DNA of 64,000 bases, taken from contig CAZEGI010000001.1 of NCBI GenBank assembly GCA_964512105.1, positions 40,534 through 104,533 of the forward strand. Reading direction: 5' to 3'. Under the pieces are notes generated by a model. That model was given only the letters and a program-made list of their open reading frames with translations. It was not told the DNA's origin and made no database searches. The first letter of the stretch is position 1. Each line of letters begins with the position of its first letter. Of the stretch, positions 3,206 through 17,527 are shown in pieces. A program made the translations under genes and the position numbers. The DNA comes from an uncultured archaeon (lineage in GTDB: Archaea; Altiarchaeota; Altiarchaeia; IMC4; CAZEGI01).

Positions 3206-4159
3206 ATGCCGGAACGCGATAAGGATGTTTACCAGCAGTTTGCACAGATGTACGACGAAATCCACAAGCGGATTGTCGGTGAAGAGGAAACCATAAGGGA
3301 CATAATTATCGCGATATTCGGTGGCGGCCATGTGCTGATTGAGAGTGTTCCGGGCATGGGCAAAACGATGCTTGCCAAGACCATTTCCGAAACGTTAGAC
3401 TGCGACTTCAAGAGGATTCAGTGCACAGCGGACCTTAGGCCGACGGATATAATCGGCAAGATGGCTTTCGACGAGGCTAAGAAGAAATACGTTCTGTCCA
3501 AGGGACCGATATTCACGAACATCCTGCTGATTGACGAAATAAACCGCGCGCCGCCAAAGACACAGTCAGCGCTGCTTGAGGCGATGGCCGAGAAAAATGT
3601 CACCATCGGCGGTGAATCGTACAAAGTGACAGAGCCGTTTATCGTTCTTGCAACGGAAAACCCCGTGGAGCAGGAGGGGACCTTTCCGCTGCCCGAGGCG
3701 CAGAAGGACAGGTTTCTTTTCAAATCGGTTATAAAATACCTCCCCATGGAGGAAGAGATCGCCATTGTGAAGTCAAAGGCGAGGGAGGAGAAGATAAACA
3801 AGATTTTCAACCCGCCTGAGATTTTGATAATACGGGAGGAGATAGCAAAAACCGTCTCAATTTCGGATGCGATTCTGGAGTATGTGGTGAAGATCGTCGA
3901 TGCAACGCGCGAACGGAGGGAGGTCGCAACCGGCGCAAGCCCGAGGGCGTCGATTGCGTTCATGACCGCGACAAAGACCAAGGCGTTTCTTGAGGGAAGG
4001 AACCATGTAACCGCGAAGGACATAAAGGAGATGGCACTCCCGATTTTGAGGCACCGCCTGATATTGAACCCGGACTCGGCGGATTTCGGAGTTACACCGG
4101 ACGACGTTATAACGAAGGTGCTTGAGAGAATCGAAGCACCGGCGGAAAAAAATGTATAA
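3206..4159 (+). CDS. MoxR-family AAA+ ATPase
   Basis: Walker A is GHVLIESVPGMGKTMLAK and Walker B is LLIDEINRAPPKTQSALLEAMAE. The 317-aa length and overall order match MoxR/RavA-type chaperone ATPases. Confidence 0.85.
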   Translation: MPERDKDVYQQFAQMYDEIHKRIVGEEETIRDIIIAIFGGGHVLIESVPGMGKTMLAKTISETLDCDFKRIQCTADLRPTDIIGKMAFDEAKKKYVLSKGPIFTNILLIDEINRAPPKTQSALLEAMAEKNVTIGGESYKVTEPFIVLATENPVEQEGTFPLPEAQKDRFLFKSVIKYLPMEEEIAIVKSKAREEKINKIFNPPEILIIREEIAKTVSISDAILEYVVKIVDATRERREVATGASPRASIAFMTATKTKAFLEGRNHVTAKDIKEMALPILRHRLILNPDSADFGVTPDDVITKVLERIEAPAEKNV

Positions 4160-6191
4160 ACCGACTGTTGTTGCACTGGTGGTTTTGGTGCTGGTCTGGA
4201 GCTGCAGCGCGGAACTTCTTGAGGAGCGCATCAGTGAGGTGTGGAAGCAGACCATGACGGGCATCGGCACGTTTAATGTCGTAGACCTGGACGACGACGG
4301 CTCGAAGGAGATTTTGGTGGCGTTCAACGACAGTATTTTCGTTTTGAATTCTACGGGGAAGATTGCAAAAAGTTATTTGCTGGGCAACACTTCCGGCAGC
4401 ATATATGCGGTTGATGCGGCGGACATAAACGGCAACGGAAGAAAGGAACTTGTTGTCGGGGTCGGGGGAATGCGGGTGATTAATGAATACGGTTTGTACG
4501 GATTTGAAACTCCGGAAAACAAGAGCATAGTGTGGAAAACGAAGGTTCTGCACGAAACCCTTAACACGCGGGGTTCGATTGTTGTGCTGGATTTGAATGG
4601 AAGCGTGTTGTGGAGCGTTGAAACGAACGATAGCGTGAATGCCTTGGGTGTGTGCGACCTTGACGGCAATGTCCCTAAGGAGATTATCGGCGGTGTCGGG
4701 GATTACGCTGTTGATACGTATAATGAGTACAAAGGTACTGATGCCAACGGGACTGCGGTATGGGAGCTTGTTGATTACCCAAAGCAGGACGGCTGGGTTT
4801 ATGTTTTCAACAGCACCGGTGTTTTGAGGTGGGGTTATAAGTTGAAACTCGTATCCGAGGGTAAAGAGGTTGTTGATGCTGACAATAACGTTAAGCGCCT
4901 GCAACTCGTGGACGTAAATCAGGACGGAATTAATGAGATATTCGCGGGCTCGGACAATGGATGGATTTACCTGCTGAACCGCACGGGGAGCTTGGCATGG
5001 AGTTACGGTTTTGGCGGAGCTATAAAATCTATGTACGCGGGAGATATCAACCGTGATAACAAGAGCGAATTTGTTATCGGCTCTGGGGATAACTACATCA
5101 CTGCCCTTGACAGCGGCAGGAGATTGTTGTGGAGGTATCGCCTTGGGGATTTTCCATCTGCTGTATACGTTACGGATTTCAATCTTGACGAGAGTGAGGA
5201 CATATTAGTGGCATCATGGGACCGCTACATCTACTCGTTTGACAAAACAGGGGGCCTGCAGTGGAAATACTTCGTCGGGGAGCGAATTTATTCCATGTTC
5301 GTAGCGGATATAGACAACGATGGCTACGAAGAGATAATTACTGCATCGCCCAACAACCTTACGGTGTTCAAACTGAACGAGAACTACCTGACGAAACAAC
5401 AGGCGGACAGGTACTACAACAAATCTTTGGCATACTTTGAATCTGCGGATTACGGCATAGCCATAATATACGCGCAAAAGGCAAGGGATTTGTACACGCG
5501 CATAGAGGACGGCACGGGCGTATCCAAGGCAAAGAAGATAATCGATGATGTGGAGCGACAACTCAGATTAGATAGAAAACTGAGCGCCGACGAGAAGTAT
5601 ACAGCGGCTTTGAATTTCTACAGCAAGAGCGAGTACGATACCGCGGAGGTTTATGTAAACTCCGCCAAAAGCATATACAAGGAGATAAACGATGATGAGG
5701 GAGTAGGCAAGTGTGATAAACTGCTCGCAAGGATAGAAAACGAACGCACAGTAAAGCGCAGGATTGATGTTGATGCCGTCTATGCAAAAGCCATGCTCGC
5801 TCTGGACTTCAATAACTACACGGCAGCGAGGGACTATGCACTGGAAGCGAGGGAGGATTACAACAACCTCGGTGCAACAAACGATGCGGAAAAATGCGAC
5901 CTTATAATAAACAGGGTTGGCGAGGCGTATTACGAAACTTCACAGCGCTATTTCAATGAAGCCAATTACACGCGGTCGAGGGAATACTCGCAACTCGCGA
6001 AGGAAACGTTCATGCTCACCAGAAACACCGAGGGTGTAACAAAAGTGGAAATGCTTCTAACGCAGCTTGATGCCGCGGAGACGAGCGAGCAAGAACGGCT
6101 ACCTTCGGAACCGAGCACGCTTCCCTACGTGGTTTTTGCTGTTTTGATTGTCGCCTCTGTGGTGATTGTGGTAAGGAGCTTGAGAAAGTAA
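4152..6191 (+). CDS. Membrane-anchored 7-bladed PQQ/FG-GAP-like beta-propeller protein with four C-terminal Tyr/Ala-rich helical repeats and a C-terminal TM anchor
   Basis: ATG at 4152 overlaps the MoxR stop (ATGTATAA). There is a signal/anchor (MYKPTVVALVVLVLVWSCSA) and seven repeats of DxDxDG..E + G.L.W.Y (VDLDDDGSKEILVAF; VDVNQDGINEIFAGSDNGWIYLLNRTGSLAWSY; and others). Then come four ~50-aa repeats (YYNKSLAYFESADYGIAIIYAQKARDLY...) and a C-terminal TM segment, LPYVVFAVLIVASVVIVV. Confidence 0.6.
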   Translation: MYKPTVVALVVLVLVWSCSAELLEERISEVWKQTMTGIGTFNVVDLDDDGSKEILVAFNDSIFVLNSTGKIAKSYLLGNTSGSIYAVDAADINGNGRKELVVGVGGMRVINEYGLYGFETPENKSIVWKTKVLHETLNTRGSIVVLDLNGSVLWSVETNDSVNALGVCDLDGNVPKEIIGGVGDYAVDTYNEYKGTDANGTAVWELVDYPKQDGWVYVFNSTGVLRWGYKLKLVSEGKEVVDADNNVKRLQLVDVNQDGINEIFAGSDNGWIYLLNRTGSLAWSYGFGGAIKSMYAGDINRDNKSEFVIGSGDNYITALDSGRRLLWRYRLGDFPSAVYVTDFNLDESEDILVASWDRYIYSFDKTGGLQWKYFVGERIYSMFVADIDNDGYEEIITASPNNLTVFKLNENYLTKQQADRYYNKSLAYFESADYGIAIIYAQKARDLYTRIEDGTGVSKAKKIIDDVERQLRLDRKLSADEKYTAALNFYSKSEYDTAEVYVNSAKSIYKEINDDEGVGKCDKLLARIENERTVKRRIDVDAVYAKAMLALDFNNYTAARDYALEAREDYNNLGATNDAEKCDLIINRVGEAYYETSQRYFNEANYTRSREYSQLAKETFMLTRNTEGVTKVEMLLTQLDAAETSEQERLPSEPSTLPYVVFAVLIVASVVIVVRSLRK

Positions 6192-6196
6192 TTAAA

Positions 6197-8224
6197 ATGG
6201 AGAAGAGGGCTGGCGTTGTGGTTGTTTTTTTGTTAGTGTTGTTTCTGCTGCCGTTAATGCCTGCACAGCCGGTAAACCTGCAGATAGTTATAAACAACGA
6301 TGCAGAGTACACAAACTCTAGGGATGTTGTGTTAAAGGTGAGTGCAACGAACGCAGACAGTTGCCGCTATAAGAATGCAGGCGAGGACTGGAGTTCATGG
6401 GAAAAGTGGGTTTTTGTTCCGGGCGTTCCACAGACCAAGGGAAAAGATTGGATGCTGTCCGCAGGCGATGGCGCCAAGCAGGTTTATTTCCAGTGTAAGG
6501 ATGAAGATGAACAGTTATCGCAGGTGGTTTCGGACACGATAGTTCTTGATACAGCACCGCCAAGCGGACTGTCAATTTTGATAAACAACGGTGATGAATA
6601 CGCGACTGCGCAGGAGGTTACACTTACACTGTCCGCGAGCGGCGCAAGCGACTGCAGATACAAAAATGAGGACGAAGAATGGGGTTCGTGGGAAAACTAC
6701 GTGGCGGAGAGGTTGTGGAATTTGAGTGCAGGGGATGGTTTGAAGAGTGTTTCCTACCAGTGCAAGGACCTTGCGGAAAATTATGCGGAAACCTCAGACA
6801 CGATAACCCTTGATACGACGATGCCGATTATTGGAATTTTTTTGGTTGATAATGATGCAGATTACACAAACAGCGTAGGGGTAACGCTAAACGTAATTGC
6901 AAGTAATGTTACGGAATGTAGGTATAATGAAAACGAATGGACTGCATGGGAGGATTATGTTACAGAAAAGCCATGGGTGTTGTCGTCGGGTGACGGTTTA
7001 AAGACGGTTTACTGCCAGTGCAGAAATGTCGCGGGGGTGGAATCCGGAATTGTTAATGATTCCATAACCTTGGACAGCACCCCGCCGGAAAACCTTTCAA
7101 TAAGGATAAACCACAATGCGGACTACGCCACAAAAAAATCCGTTGTTCTGAATCTCAACGCAGAGAGCGCGAGCGAATGCCAGCAGAGGAATGAGAATGA
7201 TGCATGGACCGGGTTTGAGGCTTACGGAACGCGAAGGTTGTGGAACCTCAGCGACGGCAACGGTTTGAAAAACGTTTCATACCAATGCGTTGACCCTGCA
7301 GGAAACCCGTCGGTTGTCGTTTATGACCTTATACTTCTGGACAACAATGCGATTCCTCCCGCGCCCGTGATAACAGAACCTGTTAGTGGCGTGATACAGA
7401 ACACTCCGCCGTTAGAGATAAGCGTTGCAGGAACCGCGGAACCGGAAAGGGAAGTTTGGGTTTACGTTAATCTTGTTCTGGTAAACAAAACGGTTGCGGA
7501 TGAATACGGAATTTTTAGTTTGAACCTGACGCTGAACGAAGAAACGAACGTCATAACCGCAAAGGCGCTGAACTACAACGGCATGAGCGAAAGCTCGAAT
7601 GAGGTTGTTGTTTTTGTCACCCCGCAACAACCGACCACGAGGAACGTCTCGTTGTATTTCGGATGGAATTTCTTCACGCTTCCGATAGAGCCGATAGACA
7701 AGAGGCCGGGAATCGTGATGTCCGGACTGGAGTACGACCGCGTTGTAAGGTACAATCCCTCAAAGGAAAAATTCGAGCGATACACGGAAAAAATGCTGGA
7801 ATCCATGCAGACGCTGAAGGAGCTCAGGGCGGGTTATGCGTACTACGTGTTCGTAACAGATAGGGATTACAGGTATCCTGATGCAATAAACCTTGTTATT
7901 ACCGGACCGCTGCCGCAGTACCAGCTCCCGCCGAAAATAACGCTGGTGTACGGCTGGAACAGTTTTGGCATTCCGGAGGAAAGCTATCTTGCAAAGGACA
8001 TACGTTCCGCTCTTGAGAACGTCAGCACCGTGGGCGGCCAAGCCAAATACGCGGATCTTACAGGAAAGTACGAGAAGATTGCACGTTACTCGAAAGCGGA
8101 TGAGCGATTTGAAACCTATGACCCGAATCCTGGTGGTTTGCGAGAGTTCGACACGTTTGAGGTTGGCAAGGCCTATTGGATTTACTACAACGATACGGAA
8201 AGCATTACCATAAGGTTGAGATGA
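6197..8224 (+). CDS. Secreted adhesin-like protein: signal peptide, four tandem ~95-aa two-cysteine modules, Ig-like domain and C-terminal domain
   Basis: Signal peptide MEKRAGVVVVFLLVLFLLPLMPA. Four paralogous modules each carry ...NND.EY....V.L......S.CRYKNE...W..WE.......W.LSAGDGLK.V.YQCKD...... An Ig-like segment (VITEPVSGVIQNTPPLEISVAGTAEPEREVWVYVN...) follows. Confidence 0.55.
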   Translation: MEKRAGVVVVFLLVLFLLPLMPAQPVNLQIVINNDAEYTNSRDVVLKVSATNADSCRYKNAGEDWSSWEKWVFVPGVPQTKGKDWMLSAGDGAKQVYFQCKDEDEQLSQVVSDTIVLDTAPPSGLSILINNGDEYATAQEVTLTLSASGASDCRYKNEDEEWGSWENYVAERLWNLSAGDGLKSVSYQCKDLAENYAETSDTITLDTTMPIIGIFLVDNDADYTNSVGVTLNVIASNVTECRYNENEWTAWEDYVTEKPWVLSSGDGLKTVYCQCRNVAGVESGIVNDSITLDSTPPENLSIRINHNADYATKKSVVLNLNAESASECQQRNENDAWTGFEAYGTRRLWNLSDGNGLKNVSYQCVDPAGNPSVVVYDLILLDNNAIPPAPVITEPVSGVIQNTPPLEISVAGTAEPEREVWVYVNLVLVNKTVADEYGIFSLNLTLNEETNVITAKALNYNGMSESSNEVVVFVTPQQPTTRNVSLYFGWNFFTLPIEPIDKRPGIVMSGLEYDRVVRYNPSKEKFERYTEKMLESMQTLKELRAGYAYYVFVTDRDYRYPDAINLVITGPLPQYQLPPKITLVYGWNSFGIPEESYLAKDIRSALENVSTVGGQAKYADLTGKYEKIARYSKADERFETYDPNPGGLREFDTFEVGKAYWIYYNDTESITIRLR

Positions 8225-9174
8225 TGAGATTTGTAACAATAATAACAATAATGGTCATGATAACGGGCGTGAGCGCGCAGCCGCTGCCGGGAATAGAGGT
8301 CTGGGGACAGGTTGAGAACTATCAGGGTGCAGTGGATAACGCAATGGTTGTTGTAGTGGTTCCGAACACCGGTTACAGCAACACGACCTACACGAACGCG
8401 GACGGGTTTTACGATTTTTTAAGCGTTAATGCAAGTGTTGACGATGTCGTGATAGTAAACGCCACAAAGAACTTCCAGGTCGGTGGAAGTTCCGTGACTG
8501 TTGTGGAAGGTTCGAACCTTTACCGTGCGGATATCACACTTGTTCTGACAGTCATGCTCACCAACGTTGCGCTGGATGTCGGCAACGATACGGAAAAACC
8601 GTTTGAATTTTACGTCCCAGGGAATTTTACCGGAACCTTCATGACGGGGGACTTTTCCGACAGGGTCAACGAGATTTTGATGAAAAACTGCGAATGCGGC
8701 GGGTGTGCGATTGTAGGTGGTGATTGCATCATTCCCTTGAGATTGGGCTCGGATTCGCCTGGAAATTTAACAGTCAACGACCTTTATGTTCAGTACTCTG
8801 TGGGGAAAAGCATCAGGAACGTGAGTTACGGAAATGGCTTCAGATATTCGCGCGGGGGCTGCTGGGAAATCGAGTACGAAACTGTAAGTGGTAGAAAAAC
8901 GATGAACGTTTCGGTTCCGCCCGGACACGATTGCAGCAATCCCCTGAAGTACACGGGTGTGGAGCATGGATATCAGGAAACCGACGACGCGATAAATGAT
9001 GCGATGTATAGGTTGCTTAACGAAACAATGGATGCGGACGGAAACGGTGTTGTGGACAAGATAACTCAGGATGAGTATTTCAACCCGGAAAGCATGGTGT
9101 TCAACGCAGACGGCAGCATCGGAATAAAATCGCTCTGGGGGCCGTCGCTGTTTAAACTTATAGTGTGGATATGA
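8221..9174 (+). CDS. Secreted protein with a carboxypeptidase-regulatory-like (CarbopepD_reg) beta-sandwich domain
   Basis: Start at 8221 (MMRFVTIITIMVMITGVSAQP gives a Sec signal with AQP cleavage) overlaps the upstream stop. The segment VVVVPNTGYSNTTYTNADGFYDF...VVIVNATKNF matches the CarbopepD_reg pattern. The protein is Cys-rich (CECGGCAIVGGDC). Confidence 0.45.
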   Translation: MMRFVTIITIMVMITGVSAQPLPGIEVWGQVENYQGAVDNAMVVVVVPNTGYSNTTYTNADGFYDFLSVNASVDDVVIVNATKNFQVGGSSVTVVEGSNLYRADITLVLTVMLTNVALDVGNDTEKPFEFYVPGNFTGTFMTGDFSDRVNEILMKNCECGGCAIVGGDCIIPLRLGSDSPGNLTVNDLYVQYSVGKSIRNVSYGNGFRYSRGGCWEIEYETVSGRKTMNVSVPPGHDCSNPLKYTGVEHGYQETDDAINDAMYRLLNETMDADGNGVVDKITQDEYFNPESMVFNADGSIGIKSLWGPSLFKLIVWI

Positions 9175-10235
9175 TGGACAACAAGGGATACATTTACACG
9201 CTGATAACGATAACGCTCGCACTGATGCTTTTGAGTCTGGCGCTTTTTTACTTCGAGTCCACAGGAACGAAGGTCGAGGACATATCAACCAAGCTCAGAA
9301 CCGATGAGTTGTATTACTTCGTTGAATCGATGGGATACGATTTGGACAGAAGCGTTCACATAACCGCGCAACGGGCAGCAACCTATGCGATAGATGAGGT
9401 GATAGAAACCGGTAGGGGTTTAGGAGATTACGACATGGAAGGTAGAAACTGCACGGCGTTCGTGTATGGTCTGAACGGCTCGCAGGCTGCGATAGCAGAA
9501 CTCATGCTGTGCGGGACCCTCTACGGCGTCGGCACGGATTCTGCGGAGTACATGCAGAACCACACGCTTCTGGACTGGATTGGGAAAATGGAGAAAGCCG
9601 GCGATGAGCTGAATTTCGATGTTGATATCGAAGTGAAAGGGATAAACCTGTATGCTTACGACATCGGTAACTTTGCGGTTTTGACAATGCTCGATGTAGG
9701 GGTGAAAGACCGTCTGGGAATCAGCGGATACGAGCAGCGTAACATGCCGGTGCTGTCTTTAATTCCGACGAGGGGAATGGAAGATCCGCTCTACCTGCTG
9801 AAAACCAGGGAGCCGGCACTGATTCCGAGGTTTGTTCCGTGCAATGAAAGTGCGGTGGTGGATGCACGCGTTGTGGATTCGTGGATAGACACGCAGTGCT
9901 ATCGTGCCGTGGATTCCGCATACAACGCACCATCGTTCTTTGACAGGATTGATGGCAACCTTTACCTCTCAGAAAAATATCTCGAGCAGAGTTTGTGGTT
10001 GAAAGGTTCACTTGGTTCGGGAGGGAAACTTATTGGTATCGAGAATTTTTTGAATCCCGAAAGGATGAGCAGGTACGGAATTCCGGTTAACGTGAACAAC
10101 ACGTGGGTTGATTATCTGTACTGGCAAAACGTTTCGGGGGAATGTACGGTAAATGGCACGGCACACGCCTACTTCAGGATAGACCAAGGGCACGGTTTGC
10201 TGTACAACATCACGAATCTTAGCTGCAGTATATAA
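9165..10235 (+). CDS. Large pilin-like protein (class-III-signal-like N-terminus; candidate minor pilin/pseudopilin)
   Basis: The N-terminus MDMMDNKG|YIYTLITITLALMLLSLALFYFE is a short charged segment followed by K-G and a ~22-aa hydrophobic helix, which is the prepilin-like architecture. The start overlaps the upstream gene by 10 nt. Confidence 0.4.
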   Translation: MDMMDNKGYIYTLITITLALMLLSLALFYFESTGTKVEDISTKLRTDELYYFVESMGYDLDRSVHITAQRAATYAIDEVIETGRGLGDYDMEGRNCTAFVYGLNGSQAAIAELMLCGTLYGVGTDSAEYMQNHTLLDWIGKMEKAGDELNFDVDIEVKGINLYAYDIGNFAVLTMLDVGVKDRLGISGYEQRNMPVLSLIPTRGMEDPLYLLKTREPALIPRFVPCNESAVVDARVVDSWIDTQCYRAVDSAYNAPSFFDRIDGNLYLSEKYLEQSLWLKGSLGSGGKLIGIENFLNPERMSRYGIPVNVNNTWVDYLYWQNVSGECTVNGTAHAYFRIDQGHGLLYNITNLSCSI

Positions 10236-10255: not shown

Positions 10256-12001
10256 ATGATGGCAGAGAAACCCGACAAACTGAAAGAGAAACTTCTGGAA
10301 CTGCTTCAGATTAGTGGAAAAAGCGGTTTGGATGATGTTGGTAAAAAACTGAAGGTTGACAAGAAACTGCTGCTTCCGGTGGTCGAGGAACTTGCGAGGG
10401 AAGGACGCATCCGGGTCGAGACCCGAATTCTGAAGGACCCGGAGATAGAACTGATTAAAACAGCAGCCGAGAGAAAACCGGATGAAATAAAGGTAGCAAA
10501 GAAGGTTGAGGGGAAGGTTGTTGAATCCTACGACATAGTTGCTGACGACGTTAAACTTCCCGTGAAAATTCTAGAGGTCGGGGATTACGTAAGGCACTAC
10601 GATGTCGCGTTGCCGCATATAGATTTGTCAACGCGTGCGATTCTCGACGAAACCAAGCGCATGCTGGTTGGCGATATCCAGATTGAAACCCGCGAGGCGA
10701 TAGATTCCGAAACCTTCCAGAGGTTGAGGGAAAGATTCGTGATACACTCGAAGGAACGGCTGAAGGATGTTTTAAAGGAGAGGTCCGAAGAGGACATCGG
10801 GCTTTTGTCGAGGGTTTTGGTAAACGAAATGTTGGGTTTGGGTGACCTTGAATACCTACTGCTTGACACGAACCTTGAGGAAGTAACTGTCAACAACAGC
10901 CGGGAACCGGTGTGGGTTTACCACAAAAAACACGGCTGGCTGAAAACGGAGATGATTATTCCGACCGAGGACATGATCAGGAATTATTCCTCGAGAATTG
11001 CGAGGGAAGTCGGCAGGGAGATAACGCACCTCGAGCCGCTGCTGGACGCCCACCTTCTTACGGGAGACAGGTTTAACGCCACGCTGTTCCCGGTATCCAC
11101 GCAGGGCAACACCATAACCATAAGGCGGTTCTCGAGGGTGCCATGGACGATTGTAAACCTCATGTCTGATGAACTTAAAACAGTAAATTCGAGCGTTGCG
11201 GCGTTCCTCTGGCTTGCGGTTGAATATGAGCTAAGTATGCTGGTCACCGGCGGAACCGCTGCTGGAAAAACAACAGTCCTCAATGCAATGATGCCGTTCA
11301 TGCCAGCCAACCAGAGGATAATAACGATGGAGGACACCCGTGAATTGAACCTGCCGGATTACCTGCAGTGGATTTCTCTGGTGAGCAGGCCTCCGAACCC
11401 GCAGGGTGAAGGCGAGGTGTCAATGCTGGATTTGGCAAAAAACGCTTTGAGAATGCGCCCGGACCGCGTTATAATCGGCGAGGTCAGAAGGAGGGAAGAA
11501 ACCGAAGTTTTATTCGAGGCCATGCACACCGGACATTCGGTTTATGGAACCTTCCATGCGGACCGCGCAGCCGAGGTCGTGGAAAGAATCACGAGCCCGC
11601 CGATGAATATTCCGGGCATTGTTCTTGGCTCCCTGCATCTGATCGTAACAACGTATCGCAACAGAAGGACAGGAACGAGAAGAATCTTCGAGATAGCGGA
11701 ACTGTTGAGGACGGAAACCGGAAAGCCGAACCTGAACGTACTTTACATATGGGACCCGAAAACCGACACCACGAAGCCGATGTACCCGAGCATGCGGGTA
11801 AAGGAGGAAATCGAAACGTTCACGGGCATGAGCGAAAAGGAAATCAAGGATAATCTGGACGACAAGCGGATGGTGCTTGAGGTGTTGCTGAAGCAGGGCA
11901 TTTTCGATGTTAACAACGTCGGAAGGATTATAAGCCGCTATTACATGGAACCGGATAAGGTAATCGAAGCCGCAAAACGCGGTAAATCTCTAAAGGAGTA
12001 A
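10256..12001 (+). CDS. Type IV pilus / archaellum-type secretion ATPase (VirB11/PilB/TadA/FlaI family)
   Basis: Walker A is LVTGGTAAGKTTVLNAMM. The Asp box/Walker B region is IITMEDTRELNLP and the His box is RPDRVIIGEVRRREE...EAMHTGHSVYGTFHA. Length is 581 aa. Confidence 0.85.
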   Translation: MMAEKPDKLKEKLLELLQISGKSGLDDVGKKLKVDKKLLLPVVEELAREGRIRVETRILKDPEIELIKTAAERKPDEIKVAKKVEGKVVESYDIVADDVKLPVKILEVGDYVRHYDVALPHIDLSTRAILDETKRMLVGDIQIETREAIDSETFQRLRERFVIHSKERLKDVLKERSEEDIGLLSRVLVNEMLGLGDLEYLLLDTNLEEVTVNNSREPVWVYHKKHGWLKTEMIIPTEDMIRNYSSRIAREVGREITHLEPLLDAHLLTGDRFNATLFPVSTQGNTITIRRFSRVPWTIVNLMSDELKTVNSSVAAFLWLAVEYELSMLVTGGTAAGKTTVLNAMMPFMPANQRIITMEDTRELNLPDYLQWISLVSRPPNPQGEGEVSMLDLAKNALRMRPDRVIIGEVRRREETEVLFEAMHTGHSVYGTFHADRAAEVVERITSPPMNIPGIVLGSLHLIVTTYRNRRTGTRRIFEIAELLRTETGKPNLNVLYIWDPKTDTTKPMYPSMRVKEEIETFTGMSEKEIKDNLDDKRMVLEVLLKQGIFDVNNVGRIISRYYMEPDKVIEAAKRGKSLKE

Positions 12002-12002
12002 G

Positions 12003-12872
12003 ATGGTATCCATCCTGGAATCGGAGCTTGTGGAAACTGCATCGAAACCTTTCAGGAGTACTGCCGAAAGGCTTACGGTTTTGTTCCCGAGTCTGGAATG
12101 GGACCTGAAAAAAGCGGGTTACATAATAGACACGATACAGTTTCTGTCCGTAGTTCTGTATCTCACGACGTTGGTTTTTGTAACTTCCGTGCTTTTTACA
12201 ACGCTCCCCATAATCATGCTTGAGGGCTTTACGAGAACGCTCTACTTTCTTGTGATTTTCTGCGCCGGAGTGAGTGCGCTTACCTTTTTCTACCTGATTA
12301 TCACGCCGCACGCAAGGATGCAGCGGCGTGCGAGACTTATCGACAAGGACCTCGAGTACATGTTGAAGGATATCGAGATACAACTGAGCGCCGGGATACC
12401 GTTGTTCGACACGTTTGTCAACGTGTCCAGGGGGCAGTACGGTGAATGCTCCGCAATAGCCAATGGCATAGTCCAGGAGGTTGAATCCGGTAAGTCCATA
12501 ACGGATGTGCTGAACGATGTCGGAATGTGGTCGCCCTCGGAGTATCTAAGGGGGGTTTTGTGGCAGATTGTGAACGCTGTAAAAACCGGCTCAAACGTGT
12601 CTGAAGTTTTGGGTGCATTGTCGGAGGACATAAGGATAGATAAAAAAAGCAGGATTGAGTCGTACGGGCACGAACTGAATCTCTGGGGTCTGATATACAT
12701 GATGGGTGCGATTATAATGCCGTCGATGGGCGTCACGCTTATGATAATACTGTCAACGTTCCTCGGAGCCAAGATAATAAATGAAAGGCTGCTGTGGATT
12801 ATACTTCTCGCCCTGATGATATTTCAGACCCTGCTGATAACGTTCATAAAAGGCAGGAGGCCGGAGGTTTAG
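12003..12872 (+). CDS. T2SSF-domain polytopic membrane protein (TadB-like half of a split FlaJ/PilC platform)
   Basis: It starts 1 nt after the ATPase stop. It has several TM helices plus a cytoplasmic T2SSF-like segment (DIEIQLSAGIPLFDTFVNVS...GKSITDVL). Together with the next gene it equals a split FlaJ/TadBC. Confidence 0.65.
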   Translation: MVSILESELVETASKPFRSTAERLTVLFPSLEWDLKKAGYIIDTIQFLSVVLYLTTLVFVTSVLFTTLPIIMLEGFTRTLYFLVIFCAGVSALTFFYLIITPHARMQRRARLIDKDLEYMLKDIEIQLSAGIPLFDTFVNVSRGQYGECSAIANGIVQEVESGKSITDVLNDVGMWSPSEYLRGVLWQIVNAVKTGSNVSEVLGALSEDIRIDKKSRIESYGHELNLWGLIYMMGAIIMPSMGVTLMIILSTFLGAKIINERLLWIILLALMIFQTLLITFIKGRRPEV

Positions 12873-12873
12873 A

Positions 12874-14016
12874 ATGACCGATGGAAAAGATTTCAGAGGT
12901 GTGTTAAGAGGCGCACTCGGACCTGTGCTATGGCTTCTGGGGATCATACTCTGGGGCATAAACGCGATTATACTGTTTATCATAATTTCGCTGAAGGCGG
13001 TAATCGACATATTCAAGAGCGTTGTGGTTGTGTTGCCATCGAAACTCGAGAGAATCGTTCCGAGCCCCCTTCAGGGCAGACTGAACCAGCTTCTGGTTTA
13101 CGCCGGAATAAAACGAACGTCAAGCGATGTTATCAGCATAACGCTGATTTACAGTCTGGTATTGAGCATCATGACCTACCTCATCCTCTACATTCTGAAG
13201 GTTTCTATACCTATTTTGTTGATGAGCACGGTGGTTGTATTCATATTTGTGTGGCTGGTAATGTACGCCACCGTGAATTTTCTTATGGAGAAGCGGGCGG
13301 AGATTATAGAGGAGGTTCTGCCCGACATCCTCGACATGATTTCCCAGAACATGATAGCGGGAATGACCACGTACAACGCGCTGTGGTCGGCTGCAAGACC
13401 CGAATTCGGGCCTCTCGCAGTTGAGATACAGACGGTTGCACGAGCTACCCTGGCCGGAACTCCGTTAACAGACGCGCTCATAGGAATGACCAACCGCATA
13501 AAATCAATGCGTCTGGAGAGAAGCGTAAAACTGATTATTCAAGGAATACAGTCCGGCGGTGAACTCCCAAACGTTCTGAAAGGAATATCAGCAGACATGC
13601 GCGCGGAGCACAACCTGAGAAAGGAAATCCGTGCGGAAACCAATATCAACACGATATTCATCCTGTTCTCGATTCTGGTTGGCGCGCCCGTGCTGTTTGC
13701 CGTGTCGTTACAGTTCATAACGATATTTTCCACGCTTTTCTCGAGAATAAACGTATCGGAATTGACAAACATATCCCGGCACACGATGATAACGCTGAGG
13801 GAGCTTTCGATATCGCCTGAATTCTTTATGCAATACGCCATGGCAATACTCATTGTTCTCAGTTTCTACGGCGCGCTTCTCATCGGCCTGGTACGAACGG
13901 GGAAGATTATAACAGGAATACGGAATATACCGATACTGATAATCGTATCCACGGGTGTGTTTTTCTTGGTAAATTATCTGCTTGAGATATTCTTGAGCGG
14001 ATTGATGAGGTTGTAG
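12874..14016 (+). CDS. T2SSF-domain polytopic membrane protein (TadC-like second half of the platform protein)
   Basis: It starts 1 nt after the previous stop. It has TM helices and the cytoplasmic segment EEVLPDILDMISQNMIAGMTTYNALWSAARPEFGPLAVEIQTVARATLAGTPLTDAL, which is typical of GspF/TadC repeats. Confidence 0.65.
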   Translation: MTDGKDFRGVLRGALGPVLWLLGIILWGINAIILFIIISLKAVIDIFKSVVVVLPSKLERIVPSPLQGRLNQLLVYAGIKRTSSDVISITLIYSLVLSIMTYLILYILKVSIPILLMSTVVVFIFVWLVMYATVNFLMEKRAEIIEEVLPDILDMISQNMIAGMTTYNALWSAARPEFGPLAVEIQTVARATLAGTPLTDALIGMTNRIKSMRLERSVKLIIQGIQSGGELPNVLKGISADMRAEHNLRKEIRAETNINTIFILFSILVGAPVLFAVSLQFITIFSTLFSRINVSELTNISRHTMITLRELSISPEFFMQYAMAILIVLSFYGALLIGLVRTGKIITGIRNIPILIIVSTGVFFLVNYLLEIFLSGLMRL

Positions 14017-15182: not shown

Positions 15183-15920
15183 TTATAGATACTCCGCATG
15201 TTTCATTATAACGTTTCCTAAATTTTTAACCTCTCTTTCGCTTAGTCCTGTGCCTTCGGTGTTGTTCTTTATGAACTCCACCAGCTTGTTTGGAGAAACA
15301 ATGCTAACTGTCGGATTTTTTATTTTCAGCACTACTGCGGGGTTTGTGAACACCAGTATACCCTCGACCCATATATGGGGTGTTTTTTTGAATATCTCCC
15401 TTTGATGCCTTAGTATGAAGTCCTTCAGCACCTTTGCGTTTCGCTTAACCTGGTTGCTCGGATTGCCTATCTCGAGCGGGTATGGTTTGCCACGCCTGCC
15501 AATCTTTCTCCTGCCCCAGACATCGCCGTTGCAACTGACCTCCCCGGAATAGTTTTTTGTTTCAACCACAAATATCCCGTTTCTGCCCAGCACGATGTGG
15601 TCAACATCACCGCGGTTCGGCGGGATTACAACGCCGCTGATCAGACAGTAGGTGTCGTCAAGTTTTTTCAGTTCGTTTATAACGATTTTTTCCCCTTCCG
15701 AGCCGCTGCCCCAGATGAGATGCTTTCGGTAGGTGTATATTCCAAGACCATAGGCTATGGGAATCAGAATCAAACCGACTGAAGCGTAAGGTACAATGTC
15801 CATGATGAAAAGTAAAAAACCCAGCAAAATCAACGTCACAAAAATCAGCAGCCTGCTCCTGTTGAGCTGTATGTTCCGCCAGACATAAAGCGTTTCCGTA
15901 TGCTTTTTCAGTAGTATCAT
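15183..15920 (-). CDS. NERD (nuclease-related domain) protein with two N-terminal TM helices
   Basis: GDVDHIVLGRNGIFVVETKNYSGEV matches the NERD core. The N-terminus is hydrophobic (LLIFVTLILLGFLLFIM; LILIPIAYGLGIY). Confidence 0.7.
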   Translation of the reverse strand: MILLKKHTETLYVWRNIQLNRSRLLIFVTLILLGFLLFIMDIVPYASVGLILIPIAYGLGIYTYRKHLIWGSGSEGEKIVINELKKLDDTYCLISGVVIPPNRGDVDHIVLGRNGIFVVETKNYSGEVSCNGDVWGRRKIGRRGKPYPLEIGNPSNQVKRNAKVLKDFILRHQREIFKKTPHIWVEGILVFTNPAVVLKIKNPTVSIVSPNKLVEFIKNNTEGTGLSEREVKNLGNVIMKHAEYL

Positions 15921-15991: not shown

Positions 15992-16483
15992 ATGATTGGA
16001 AGAAGAGGTCAGGGTGCCATGGAGTACCTCATGACCTATGGATGGGCAATCCTGGTGGTTATGATCGTCGGGATTGTCATGTGGCAGTTGGGTATTTTTT
16101 CTATGGGAACCACAACCGTCACAGCGACGGGCTTTAGCAAGATAAAGCCACAGCTCGCCGGAACGGGTGTTTCGGGCAGCACAGGTAAGTTTACGGGGGT
16201 ATTTATGAATGGCGCAGGTTCTGCAGTAAGCGTAAAGAGTGTTACCCTTGAAGGAAAGACTGGTAATTTGGACTGTTCCGCTGCGATTGTTGCATTACCA
16301 TCGGCTCCCGTAGCTGCGGGCGATAACTTCGAGCTGTCAACAACGGCACCGACACACTGTACCGAAACGGGTAATGCCGGCGATGTCTACCAGTTGTTAG
16401 TGACGATAAACTACAACATAAGCATAGGCGGACTGACTACAGACCACTCGGACAGCGGCATAATAAGGGGGCCACTTGAATAA
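15992..16483 (+). CDS. Archaeal type IV pilin (class III signal peptide, QxSxEY motif), paralog 1
   Basis: The N-terminus MIGRRGQGAMEYLMTYGWAILVVMIVGIVMWQLGIF fits the PF04021-like class III signal (Q-x-[SA]-x-E-x3-T, then a hydrophobic helix). The C-terminus GGLTTDHSDSGIIRGPLE is shared with the two downstream paralogs. Confidence 0.8.
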   Translation: MIGRRGQGAMEYLMTYGWAILVVMIVGIVMWQLGIFSMGTTTVTATGFSKIKPQLAGTGVSGSTGKFTGVFMNGAGSAVSVKSVTLEGKTGNLDCSAAIVALPSAPVAAGDNFELSTTAPTHCTETGNAGDVYQLLVTINYNISIGGLTTDHSDSGIIRGPLE

Positions 16484-16545: not shown

Positions 16546-17046
16546 ATGAAGTCCAGAAAAGCCCAGTCCGCACTGGAGTATATAACAACGTATGGTTGGG
16601 CCGTGCTCGTTGTACTTATCCTTGGAATTGCGCTGTGGCAGCTCGGAATTTTTCAGACAAGCCCTGCCACGAGTTTTTCCGGTTTTGGCGCTTTAAAGCC
16701 GCAGCTTAGCGGGACGGAATTAAAGCTTTCGGGCAGCACTGCAAACTTTACAGGGATGTTCATAAACGGTTTTGGTGACCGTGTAATCGTTACGGACGTG
16801 AACATCACGGAAAAGTATGGCGGTTGTGCTGCCGACATTACGGTTAACGACAACTTCATAGGACCAAACGGTGTAGTTATCGGGAGGGGGAATTTTTTTG
16901 TTGTGAAGGGAACGGGTATAGATACGGCGGCTGCGTCTGTTGGTGATATCTACGAACTTACGGTGCGGTTTGACTACAACATTTTGGTGGGAGGCACAAA
17001 AACCAATCACTCAGTTTCGGGAGTTATACGTGGTCCTTATGTCTAA
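16546..17046 (+). CDS. Archaeal type IV pilin, paralog 2
   Basis: MKSRKAQSALEYITTYGWAVLVVLILGIALWQLGIF, with the conserved C-terminal ...TNHSVSGVIRGPYV. Confidence 0.8.
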   Translation: MKSRKAQSALEYITTYGWAVLVVLILGIALWQLGIFQTSPATSFSGFGALKPQLSGTELKLSGSTANFTGMFINGFGDRVIVTDVNITEKYGGCAADITVNDNFIGPNGVVIGRGNFFVVKGTGIDTAAASVGDIYELTVRFDYNILVGGTKTNHSVSGVIRGPYV

Positions 17047-17527
17047 GCCGAAAAAATCCCAGGCTGCTGTAGAGTACGTGATGACCTATGGTTGGGCCAT
17101 TCTCGTCATCCTGATAGTCGGGGTGATGATGTGGCAGCTCGGCATTTTCAAGATTGGAGGTCAGACCGCGCCGGGCAGTAGGGGATTTTCACAGATAAGG
17201 CCTCTTGATTGGTCGCTCAAAAAAATAAGCGCAACCGACGGAACCCTTGACATGATAGTGGTGAACGATGCGGGAGTCATACTGCAACTGCCAGCAAACA
17301 GCGTATTCGCGGCCGTTGACCTAGTGAACTGCAGCACGGGGCCAGCAACAGCATACACGAAATTCCGACCGGGTCAGACGATACCCGTAACACTAACGTG
17401 CCAGAATCTTCCTGCAGAATATCAAACAGGGGAGTATTACAGGGCAACCGTTGTAATCAATTACATAAACCCGGCATCGGGTCTTAACCACTCGAGCGTC
17501 GGGATAGTTTTTGGAGGCGTTGAGTAA
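17039..17527 (+). CDS. Archaeal type IV pilin, paralog 3
   Basis: MSKPKKSQAAVEYVMTYGWAILVILIVGVMMWQLGIF. The ATG at 17039 overlaps the stop of paralog 2 (ATGTCTAA). Confidence 0.75.
   Translation: MSKPKKSQAAVEYVMTYGWAILVILIVGVMMWQLGIFKIGGQTAPGSRGFSQIRPLDWSLKKISATDGTLDMIVVNDAGVILQLPANSVFAAVDLVNCSTGPATAYTKFRPGQTIPVTLTCQNLPAEYQTGEYYRATVVINYINPASGLNHSSVGIVFGGVE

Follow-up and report, generated by a model that had tools for sequence, protein, structure and literature searches.

The gene under study (the target) occupies positions 6197..8224 of the plus strand in a 64-kb window, by which we mean the whole stretch of DNA analyzed here, from contig CAZEGI010000001.1 of an uncultivated archaeon. It runs from an ATG start to a stop codon within these coordinates and encodes a predicted acidic secreted or surface protein of 675 amino acids (aa). 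Our preferred reading, to which we assign a probability of about 0.6, is that this protein combines a stalk of disulfide-bearing archaeal BIg-like repeats with a C-terminal binding module, both carried by an acidic surface protein exported through the Sec pathway. Four tandem modules with two aligned cysteines each would, together with a fifth Ig-like domain of another type, make up the stalk; the C-terminal domain consists of two homologous halves. Sequence comparisons point to an organism related to Altiarchaeota, and an Hjc resolvase gene present on the same contig supports the archaeal context.

Four tandem modules in a putatively exported protein

The N-terminus of the protein (6197..6265, plus strand; aa 1-23, MEKRAG-VVVVFLLVLFLLPLM-PA↓QP) looks like a Sec-type signal peptide and is its sole hydrophobic segment. 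The cleavage site was read off the sequence, with no predictor, and the absence of a class III signal was likewise judged by eye. After aa 23 the protein is acidic and hydrophilic throughout (pI 4.4; 75.6 kDa as full protein, about 73 kDa for the mature form). It contains 11 N-x-S/T sequons, as compared with 6.6 +/- 2.3 in shuffled sequences, a count of 11 being reached in 100 of 2000 shuffles. Because the single N-terminal hydrophobic stretch, the acidic, hydrophilic remainder and the sequon count all fit export, the protein is predicted to be exported or located at the cell surface.

The four BIg-like modules, all on the plus strand, extend over 6269..6562 (module 1; aa 25-122, with Cys56 and Cys100), 6563..6826 (module 2; aa 123-210, Cys153 and Cys189), 6827..7087 (module 3; aa 211-297, Cys241 and Cys275 plus an additional Cys273) and 7088..7360 (module 4; aa 298-388, Cys328 and Cys364). 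Module 1 scored 102 bits (E = 3e-31) against the family profile and has a 10-residue insertion between its WE motif and the following strand, and module 4 has retained DxAGN, a motif seen in the family at large. When aligned with MAFFT, the modules shared 38-51% identity and 21 invariant columns, and BLASTP comparisons of module against module gave E values of 1.5e-18 to 9.6e-29, far beyond chance. All nine cysteines of the protein lie inside the modules, eight of them in two aligned columns, with C273 as the extra one. The identity of the codon-aligned module DNA was only 48-57%; the duplication must thus be ancient and is not an assembly artifact.

These data bear out the preliminary description of this DNA, which had reported four tandem homologous modules in a secreted protein. 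The length of about 95 aa that it gave for each of them was less exact, the tandem modules actually ranging from 87 to 98 aa. The motif that it had proposed (CRYKNE..W..WE followed by W.LSAGDGLK.V.YQCKD) was indeed present, in degenerate form in modules 3 and 4. The Ig-like region and the further domain that it had placed after the modules were also recovered, as a sub-threshold Glucodextran_B match and a separate domain covering aa 476-675, both of which are described below.

Relationship of the modules to Ig-like repeat families

A search with the whole protein retrieved 270 homologues. In the best 120 of these 270, a hidden Markov model (HMM) built from the four modules found 699 copies, often 7-11 in tandem and up to 11 per protein. 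The named sources of the homologues include Omnitrophota, Chloroflexi, Bacteroidota, Paenibacillus, Desantisbacteria, Spirochaetaceae, Diapherotrites and Thermoplasmata, among others. The consensus of 352 full-length copies reads S-I-x-I-N-x-G-A-x-Y-T-N-S-x-x-V-T-L-x-L-S-A-x-G-A-x-E-M-R-F-S-N-D-G…W-S-x-W-E-P-Y…K-x-W-T-L-S-x-G-D-G-x-K-T-V-Y-V-Q-F-R-D-x-A-G-N-x-S…S-D-T-I-x-L-D-T-T-P-P. Two Trp residues are conserved in these copies (82% and 69%), as are the GDGxK motif (G 96%, K 89%) and an LDxxxP tail. Judged from this alignment, the Trp residues, GDGxK and the LDxxxP tail are features of the whole family, independent of the host and of the protein context, and are read as parts of the scaffold and of the junctions between modules.

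To predict the fold, AlphaFold2 was run on module 2 with an alignment of 100 module sequences. In the model (pLDDT 96.9, pTM 0.85), six strands and a short bridge were arranged as a sandwich. In the Protein Data Bank (PDB), Foldseek retrieved SoxY, a BIg domain of SiiE, an Fn3-like domain of CbhA and PKD domains with TM scores of 0.6-0.72 (about 0.7 for SoxY and SiiE) and identities of 14-20%, the chains of the SiiE structure 2yn3 being matched with TM scores of 0.65-0.72 and E values of 1.7e-3 to 6e-3. This Foldseek comparison, which the preliminary description had proposed for one module, thus yielded a resemblance to SiiE BIg, PKD and Fn3 domains and not a novel fold. The model has the seven-strand Greek-key sandwich and the significant structural likeness to several Ig-like families that characterize the E-set/Ig-like superfamily, and also the SiiE-like Ig beta-sandwich of Big_13. 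The module is accordingly predicted to have an ordinary Ig/Fn3/PKD-like sandwich fold.

Sequence models gave a similar picture when applied to 100 diverse members of the family. With Pfam, sub-threshold matches were obtained to Big_13 in 37 of them, to Big_7 in 20 and to DUF7743 in 14; with NCBIfam, 44 gave sub-threshold matches to the OmpL47-type domain at E<=1 (best E, 1.4e-9). The modules are best described as an uncurated Ig-like (E-set) sub-family that stands beside Big_13 and the OmpL47-type domain and has no close solved relative.

A paired cysteine replacement in an archaeal subfamily

Two conserved cysteines had been presented as a hallmark of the module. This is true of all four modules in the window, while in the family as a whole the two columns are usually occupied by Met (56%; also Val and Ile) and Phe (53%; also Val and Tyr), with Cys in 7-8% of the copies. 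The two cysteines are strongly associated: of the 352 copies, 24 have both, seven have a single one (1 + 6) and 321 have neither, which gives a Fisher p of 1.5e-30, a value that overstates the evidence because the 24 Cys-Cys copies are spread over about eight proteins, all scored modules of which contain the pair, so that few independent events are involved.

So far as it can be judged, the Cys-Cys subfamily is archaeal: one of the relatives (P0050) belongs to a named Diapherotrites archaeon, and another (P0046) adjoins an archaeal ribosomal-protein operon with S4e, RNase P p29 and SUI1. We also observed that three of these archaeal relatives (P0033, P0046 and P0085) have a lipobox-like start, 'LLAGCPGG', and that a Cys-rich motif, 'DEHGC.ASAGYTWCE.L.ECI..WET.CP', which contains four cysteines, occurs once or twice at their C-termini.

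In the model of module 2, the two cysteines are on strands formed by residues 30-35 and 59-68 (the third and the sixth strands). Residue alternation and the family consensus indicate that both positions face the core, and by analogy with the Fn3/PKD-type topology these strands would be the neighboring C and F strands. The suggestion of one disulfide per domain is therefore plausible, since the cysteines in the two columns co-occur, both are on predicted strands and the columns are otherwise hydrophobic in the family. Most likely, the paired Met/Phe to Cys/Cys replacement forms one stabilizing disulfide in each module, in this archaeal sub-lineage only.

C-terminal domain and proposed architecture

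Module 4 is followed by a fifth Ig-like domain of another type (7361..7621, plus strand; aa 389-475), which contains no cysteines. It matched Glucodextran_B of Pfam at aa 388-469 with 24.6 bits (E = 2.4e-5), just under the cut-off of 27, and its few database homologues carry Big_6. The rest of the protein, aa 476-675, comprises two repeats on the plus strand, repeat a (7622..7921; aa 476-575, 'YFGWNFFTLP ... RYNPSKEKFERY ... AGYAYYVFV') and repeat b (7922..8221; aa 576-675, 'VYGWNSFGIP ... RYSKADERFETY ... VGKAYWIYY'). The two halves are homologous, as indicated both by BLASTP (E = 3e-7) and by the profile-profile comparison with hhalign (99.9%, E = 4e-32). The signatures of the domain are 'L-x-x-GWN-[LF]-[IFV]-S-[LI]-P' and 'G-[KR]-[GA]-YW-[IV]'.

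HMMER was required to find relatives of this domain: a word-index protein search with the C-terminal half gave just two Ig-domain matches, and 17 when a profile was used, as compared with 161 representative clusters at E<=1e-3 in an exhaustive HMMER search. Among 53 full-length matches, the domain was at the extreme C-terminus in 38, N-terminal in five and internal in 10. Its partners include CARDB, lamin-tail, Big_5, alginate lyase, an apiosidase-like domain, the proprotein-convertase P-domain and RHS-associated proteins, and its hosts include Aenigmarchaeota, a Euryarchaeota metagenome-assembled genome (MAG), ANME-1, Poribacteria and Brevefilum. When 34 members and 10 full proteins were scanned, none had the domain covered by a Pfam or NCBIfam model, and no PDB sequence matched it at E<=1. 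The domain was confidently modeled and had no structural neighbor among solved structures, its resemblance to jelly-roll or carbohydrate-binding-module (CBM)-like folds being weak. Neither by sequence nor by fold did we find a curated family for aa 476-675 in Pfam-A, NCBIfam or the PDB, and no literature was found on the GWNLIS motif. This domain is the least charted part of the open reading frame (ORF) and a better lead than the modules.

How these parts could work together may be pictured as follows. Arranged head to tail, the four BIg modules and the fifth Ig-like domain would form a semi-rigid spacer of about 15-20 nm, an estimate based on a length of about 4 nm per Ig-like domain. The duplicated C-terminal domain of about 200 aa would be the working end, which binds or attaches to a glycan or a cell-envelope component, and the modules, acting as a stalk, would keep the remainder of the protein at a distance from the binding partner of that domain. 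We infer the binding role of the C-terminal domain because it is a terminal module common to unrelated passengers, including polysaccharide-active enzymes, has two repeats, and shows the weak jelly-roll/CBM-like resemblance. The orientation would depend on the fate of the signal peptide. After cleavage, for which PA↓QP is a plausible site, the protein would be tethered through its C-terminal domain, with the Ig array pointing outward; should the segment instead act as a signal anchor, the C-terminal domain would form a distal head on a stalk made of the Ig array.

More tentatively, one may go further and propose, against the odds as we see them, that the C-terminal 'GWN…GxGYW' domain of about 190 aa (7622..8221) is an undescribed family, with a fold that has no solved representative, and serves archaea and bacteria as a terminal module by which secreted proteins of many kinds (lyases, Ig arrays, lamin-tail, CARDB and RHS proteins) are attached to a polymer of the cell envelope or to a glycan in the environment. 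Its stalk would in that case be formed by the two-Cys modules, as a new archaeal subfamily of BIg repeats locked by disulfides.

Genomic neighborhood and relation to the type IV pilus

The target is part of a compact, co-directional cluster on the plus strand, in which the genes overlap or nearly abut. The cluster begins with a TPR protein of 850 aa (from 597), followed by a MoxR AAA+ ATPase (3206..4159), which also matches Pfam bpMoxR, and by a membrane-anchored FG-GAP beta-propeller/TPR protein (4152..6191), which ends 5 nt before the start codon of the target. Downstream are a secreted protein of 316 aa (g316; 8224..9174), the start of which overlaps the target stop, a protein of 354 aa without Pfam family (g354; 9171..10235), which has a pilin-like N-terminal helix (MMDNKG-YIYTLITITLALMLLSLALF), a T2SSE/PilB-type ATPase (10259..12001), two T2SSF/PilC-type membrane proteins (12003..12872 and 12874..14016) and CorA. 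Three paralogous type IV pilins of about 160 aa with class III signal peptides (15992..16483, 16546..17046 and 17039..17527, plus strand) are encoded about 2 kb beyond the cluster, and the interval between CorA and the pilins contains, on the minus strand, a gene (15183..15920) for a NERD-domain protein that has two transmembrane segments at its N-terminus. The pilin signals read …RGQ↓GAMEY… (…RGQ↓GAMEYLMTYGWAILVV…), …KAQ↓SALEY… and …KSQ↓AAVEY…. By their predicted products, the pilins, the PilB-like ATPase and the two PilC-like genes are a complete archaeal type IV pilus locus.

This position, inside the co-directional pilus cluster with the pilin genes nearby, is what speaks for the target being a dedicated component of the type IV pilus, for example a pilus-associated adhesin or a co-assembled accessory surface factor. 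We consider this unlikely. Type IV pilins combine a class III signal with a hydrophobic N-terminal helix, and the target N-terminus (MEKRAGVVVVFLL…PAQP) shows neither that combination nor the Q↓[GSA]A[ML]EY…GW motif of the three pilins of the locus. Comparison with other loci was also unfavorable. The nearest ATPases found were those of Altiarchaeales and Altiarchaeota MAGs (55-65% identity), and the best syntenic relative, an Altiarchaeota locus (L006), has retained MoxR, FG-GAP, g316, g354, the ATPase and both T2SSF genes, with 434 bp at the place of the target. Across 80 related ATPase loci, the two domain types of the target were absent, save for one small fragment of the C-terminal domain in L015. 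Because of its absence from syntenic loci and the lack of a class III signal, the target does not appear to be a core part of the pilus; we concluded from these comparisons that it was probably inserted, in this lineage specifically, into a pilus operon that is otherwise conserved, and with which it is likely to be co-expressed. No relatives of the target gene were found in GTDB species-representative genomes, and at 90% identity the protein forms a one-member cluster. Six metagenomic contigs encode the identical protein; they stem from no fewer than three samples, which include two JGI metagenomes (3300022556 and 3300025136) and one SRA run (SRR5214703).

A few observations concern the neighborhood itself. 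In Altiarchaeota, and likewise in many lineages of the DPANN group (Aenigmatarchaeota, Micrarchaeota and Woesearchaeota), homologues of g354 with 21-44% identity adjoin the same ATPase, and judged from this distribution g354 looks like a conserved, unnamed component of the pilus system. In Pfam, bpMoxR is the MoxR of 'MoxR-vWA-beta-propeller' systems; the order TPR/MoxR/FG-GAP is kept in L006, which suggests that this MoxR/propeller module is coupled to the pilus operon. The GC content of the window is 42-50%, with strand-switch-like changes of GC skew near 18-22 kb, 38-44 kb and from 50 kb onward. Neither tRNA genes nor Rfam families at gathering score were found in it, so that it offers no RNA marker for taxonomy. 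Minus-strand ORFs at 6016..6312, 6318..6575 and 7760..8248 were set aside as mechanical, their translations being of low complexity and opposite a well-supported gene.

Role of the SAGDGLK motif

Another possibility is that the four modules themselves are the binding part, in a Ca2+-dependent adhesive or homophilic way that involves the SAGDGLK loop, and that the C-terminal domain just anchors the protein. Such a role would agree with the fact that relatives such as SiiE are adhesins made of BIg repeats, with the conservation of Asp/Asn at the module boundaries (IN-x-G at the start, D-x-I-x-LD-xx-P at the end) and with the weak match of 5 of 100 family members to a model of Ca2+-stabilized tandem-repeat adhesins; the C-terminal domain, for its part, acts like a terminal tag on diverse proteins. 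Yet GDGxK and Trp are kept in up to 11 copies per protein, in bacteria as well as in archaea, which is the pattern expected of a scaffold, and in the model of module 2 SAGDGLK forms the hairpin turn ahead of the long strand 59-68. Because of this family-wide conservation and of the turn position, the motif presumably has a structural role rather than that of a specific binding loop. The idea, put forward in the preliminary description, that SAGDGLK and the conserved Trp make up a binding loop was thus not supported, and we regard binding by the modules as quite unlikely.

Novelty of the modules

The modules had also been called possibly a new extracellular domain, and a strong form of this claim would be that they represent a family unrelated to those described. 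Several negative results speak for it. At E<=10, none of the four window modules gave a relevant match in Pfam or was matched by a curated NCBIfam family. The only NCBIfam hit of the whole protein was the OmpL47-type model NF047446 (14.6 bits, E = 0.034), confined to aa 353-372 in module 4 and well under the cut-off of 40 bits. The module profile found no PDB sequence below an E value of 0.14, its best match being SiiE 2yn3, aligned on 'dG.kt…D.AGN'. Bacterial members of the family also stay just under the Big_13 gathering cut-off (27 bits), which was not reached by any single module of the window or of the family: individual modules of a Paenibacillus protein (P0030) scored 23.8-23.9 bits over profile positions 22-102 of 102, and multi-copy proteins clear the Pfam sequence threshold solely through summed scores. 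Nor was there a Pfam match to PKD, CARDB or He_PIG, the confident hits that the preliminary description had considered as a reason to drop its claim, in the target protein or its modules; among the 100 family members, a single PKD_6 match had an E value of 0.048. The claim was nevertheless not sustained, the module being a widespread repeat of about 90 aa with near-threshold Big_13 matches, OmpL47-type matches in 44 of 100 members and an ordinary Ig/Fn3/PKD-like fold, and a family without described relatives is very unlikely.

It is hardly credible that the target is an S-layer or hamus-type structural subunit (the hamus being the grappling hook of Altiarchaeum), although the organism is related to Altiarchaeota and the hamus subunit is beta-rich and Sec-exported: that subunit has a mass of about 97 kDa and an S_layer_N (PF05123) N-terminus (PMC4460559), whereas the target, compared with it by description only, is a 75.6-kDa protein with no S_layer_N match in a Pfam scan, not conserved in relatives and alone in its cluster.

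Evaluation and significance

Some points weigh against a stalk of disulfide-bearing BIg-like repeats that carries a C-terminal binding module. Besides the small number of independent cysteine events, the window's own modules match no curated Ig-like model, so that their placement among BIg domains is transitive, through family members and the fold. The orientation may be either of the two described above, depending on whether the signal is cleaved or serves as an anchor, and the close packing of its gene with those of a type IV pilus machine could point to a more specific role of the protein.

Taken by themselves, the modules are ordinary Ig-like stalk repeats, members of a sub-family that is uncurated and has a disulfide variant in archaea, and as the feature originally flagged they are of modest importance. 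They nevertheless merit a curated family of their own inside the Ig-like (E-set) clan, hundreds of copies being now below model cut-offs, and the paired Met/Phe to Cys/Cys replacement is a tidy natural case of disulfide engineering in extracellular archaeal domains. If the C-terminal domain truly is a surface-attachment or glycan-binding module, it will help to annotate 'hypothetical' surface proteins in DPANN, Altiarchaeota, ANME and candidate bacterial phyla.

Comparison with known systems

Among described families, Big_13 (PF19077, SiiE-type), of which 2yn3 is the structural exemplar (PMC9704523), is also a beta-sandwich of about 90-100 aa that forms long tandem arrays in secreted surface proteins, and it shares with the module family the strand motifs '…dG.kt.…D.AGN…D'. 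The modules differ from it in their low identity to SiiE domains (14-20%) and, in the window's subfamily, in the Cys pair. The OmpL47-type beta-barrel domain (NF047446), known from Leptospira OmpL47, likewise consists of repeated domains of a surface-exposed protein, and among curated models it is the one matched by the largest number of family members (44 of 100); that model, however, has 68 positions as compared with about 90 for the module, and the match in the window covers just 20 residues. DUF7743 (PF24893) and Big_7 (PF17957) gave partial, sub-threshold matches in family members and are precomputed on many homologues, but their profiles are only partly covered (positions 16-73 of 120 for DUF7743) and the window modules do not match them. 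PKD and Fn3 domains, which the module resembles in fold, share 10-18% identity with it and no sequence-model match.

At the level of the whole protein, the closest comparison is with the 'Periscope' stalk proteins, among whose listed folds is Big_13 (PMC9704523). The repeats of these proteins are nearly identical in DNA and variable in copy number, whereas the target modules share only 48-57% of their DNA sequence; we therefore rejected periscope-type variable repeats for the target, and recombinational length variation of its array is not expected. The target differs further in having an archaeal host and in lacking a cell-wall sorting motif. What it has in common with the Periscope proteins is the overall plan, a signal peptide followed by a tandem Ig-like array and then by a distinct terminal domain.

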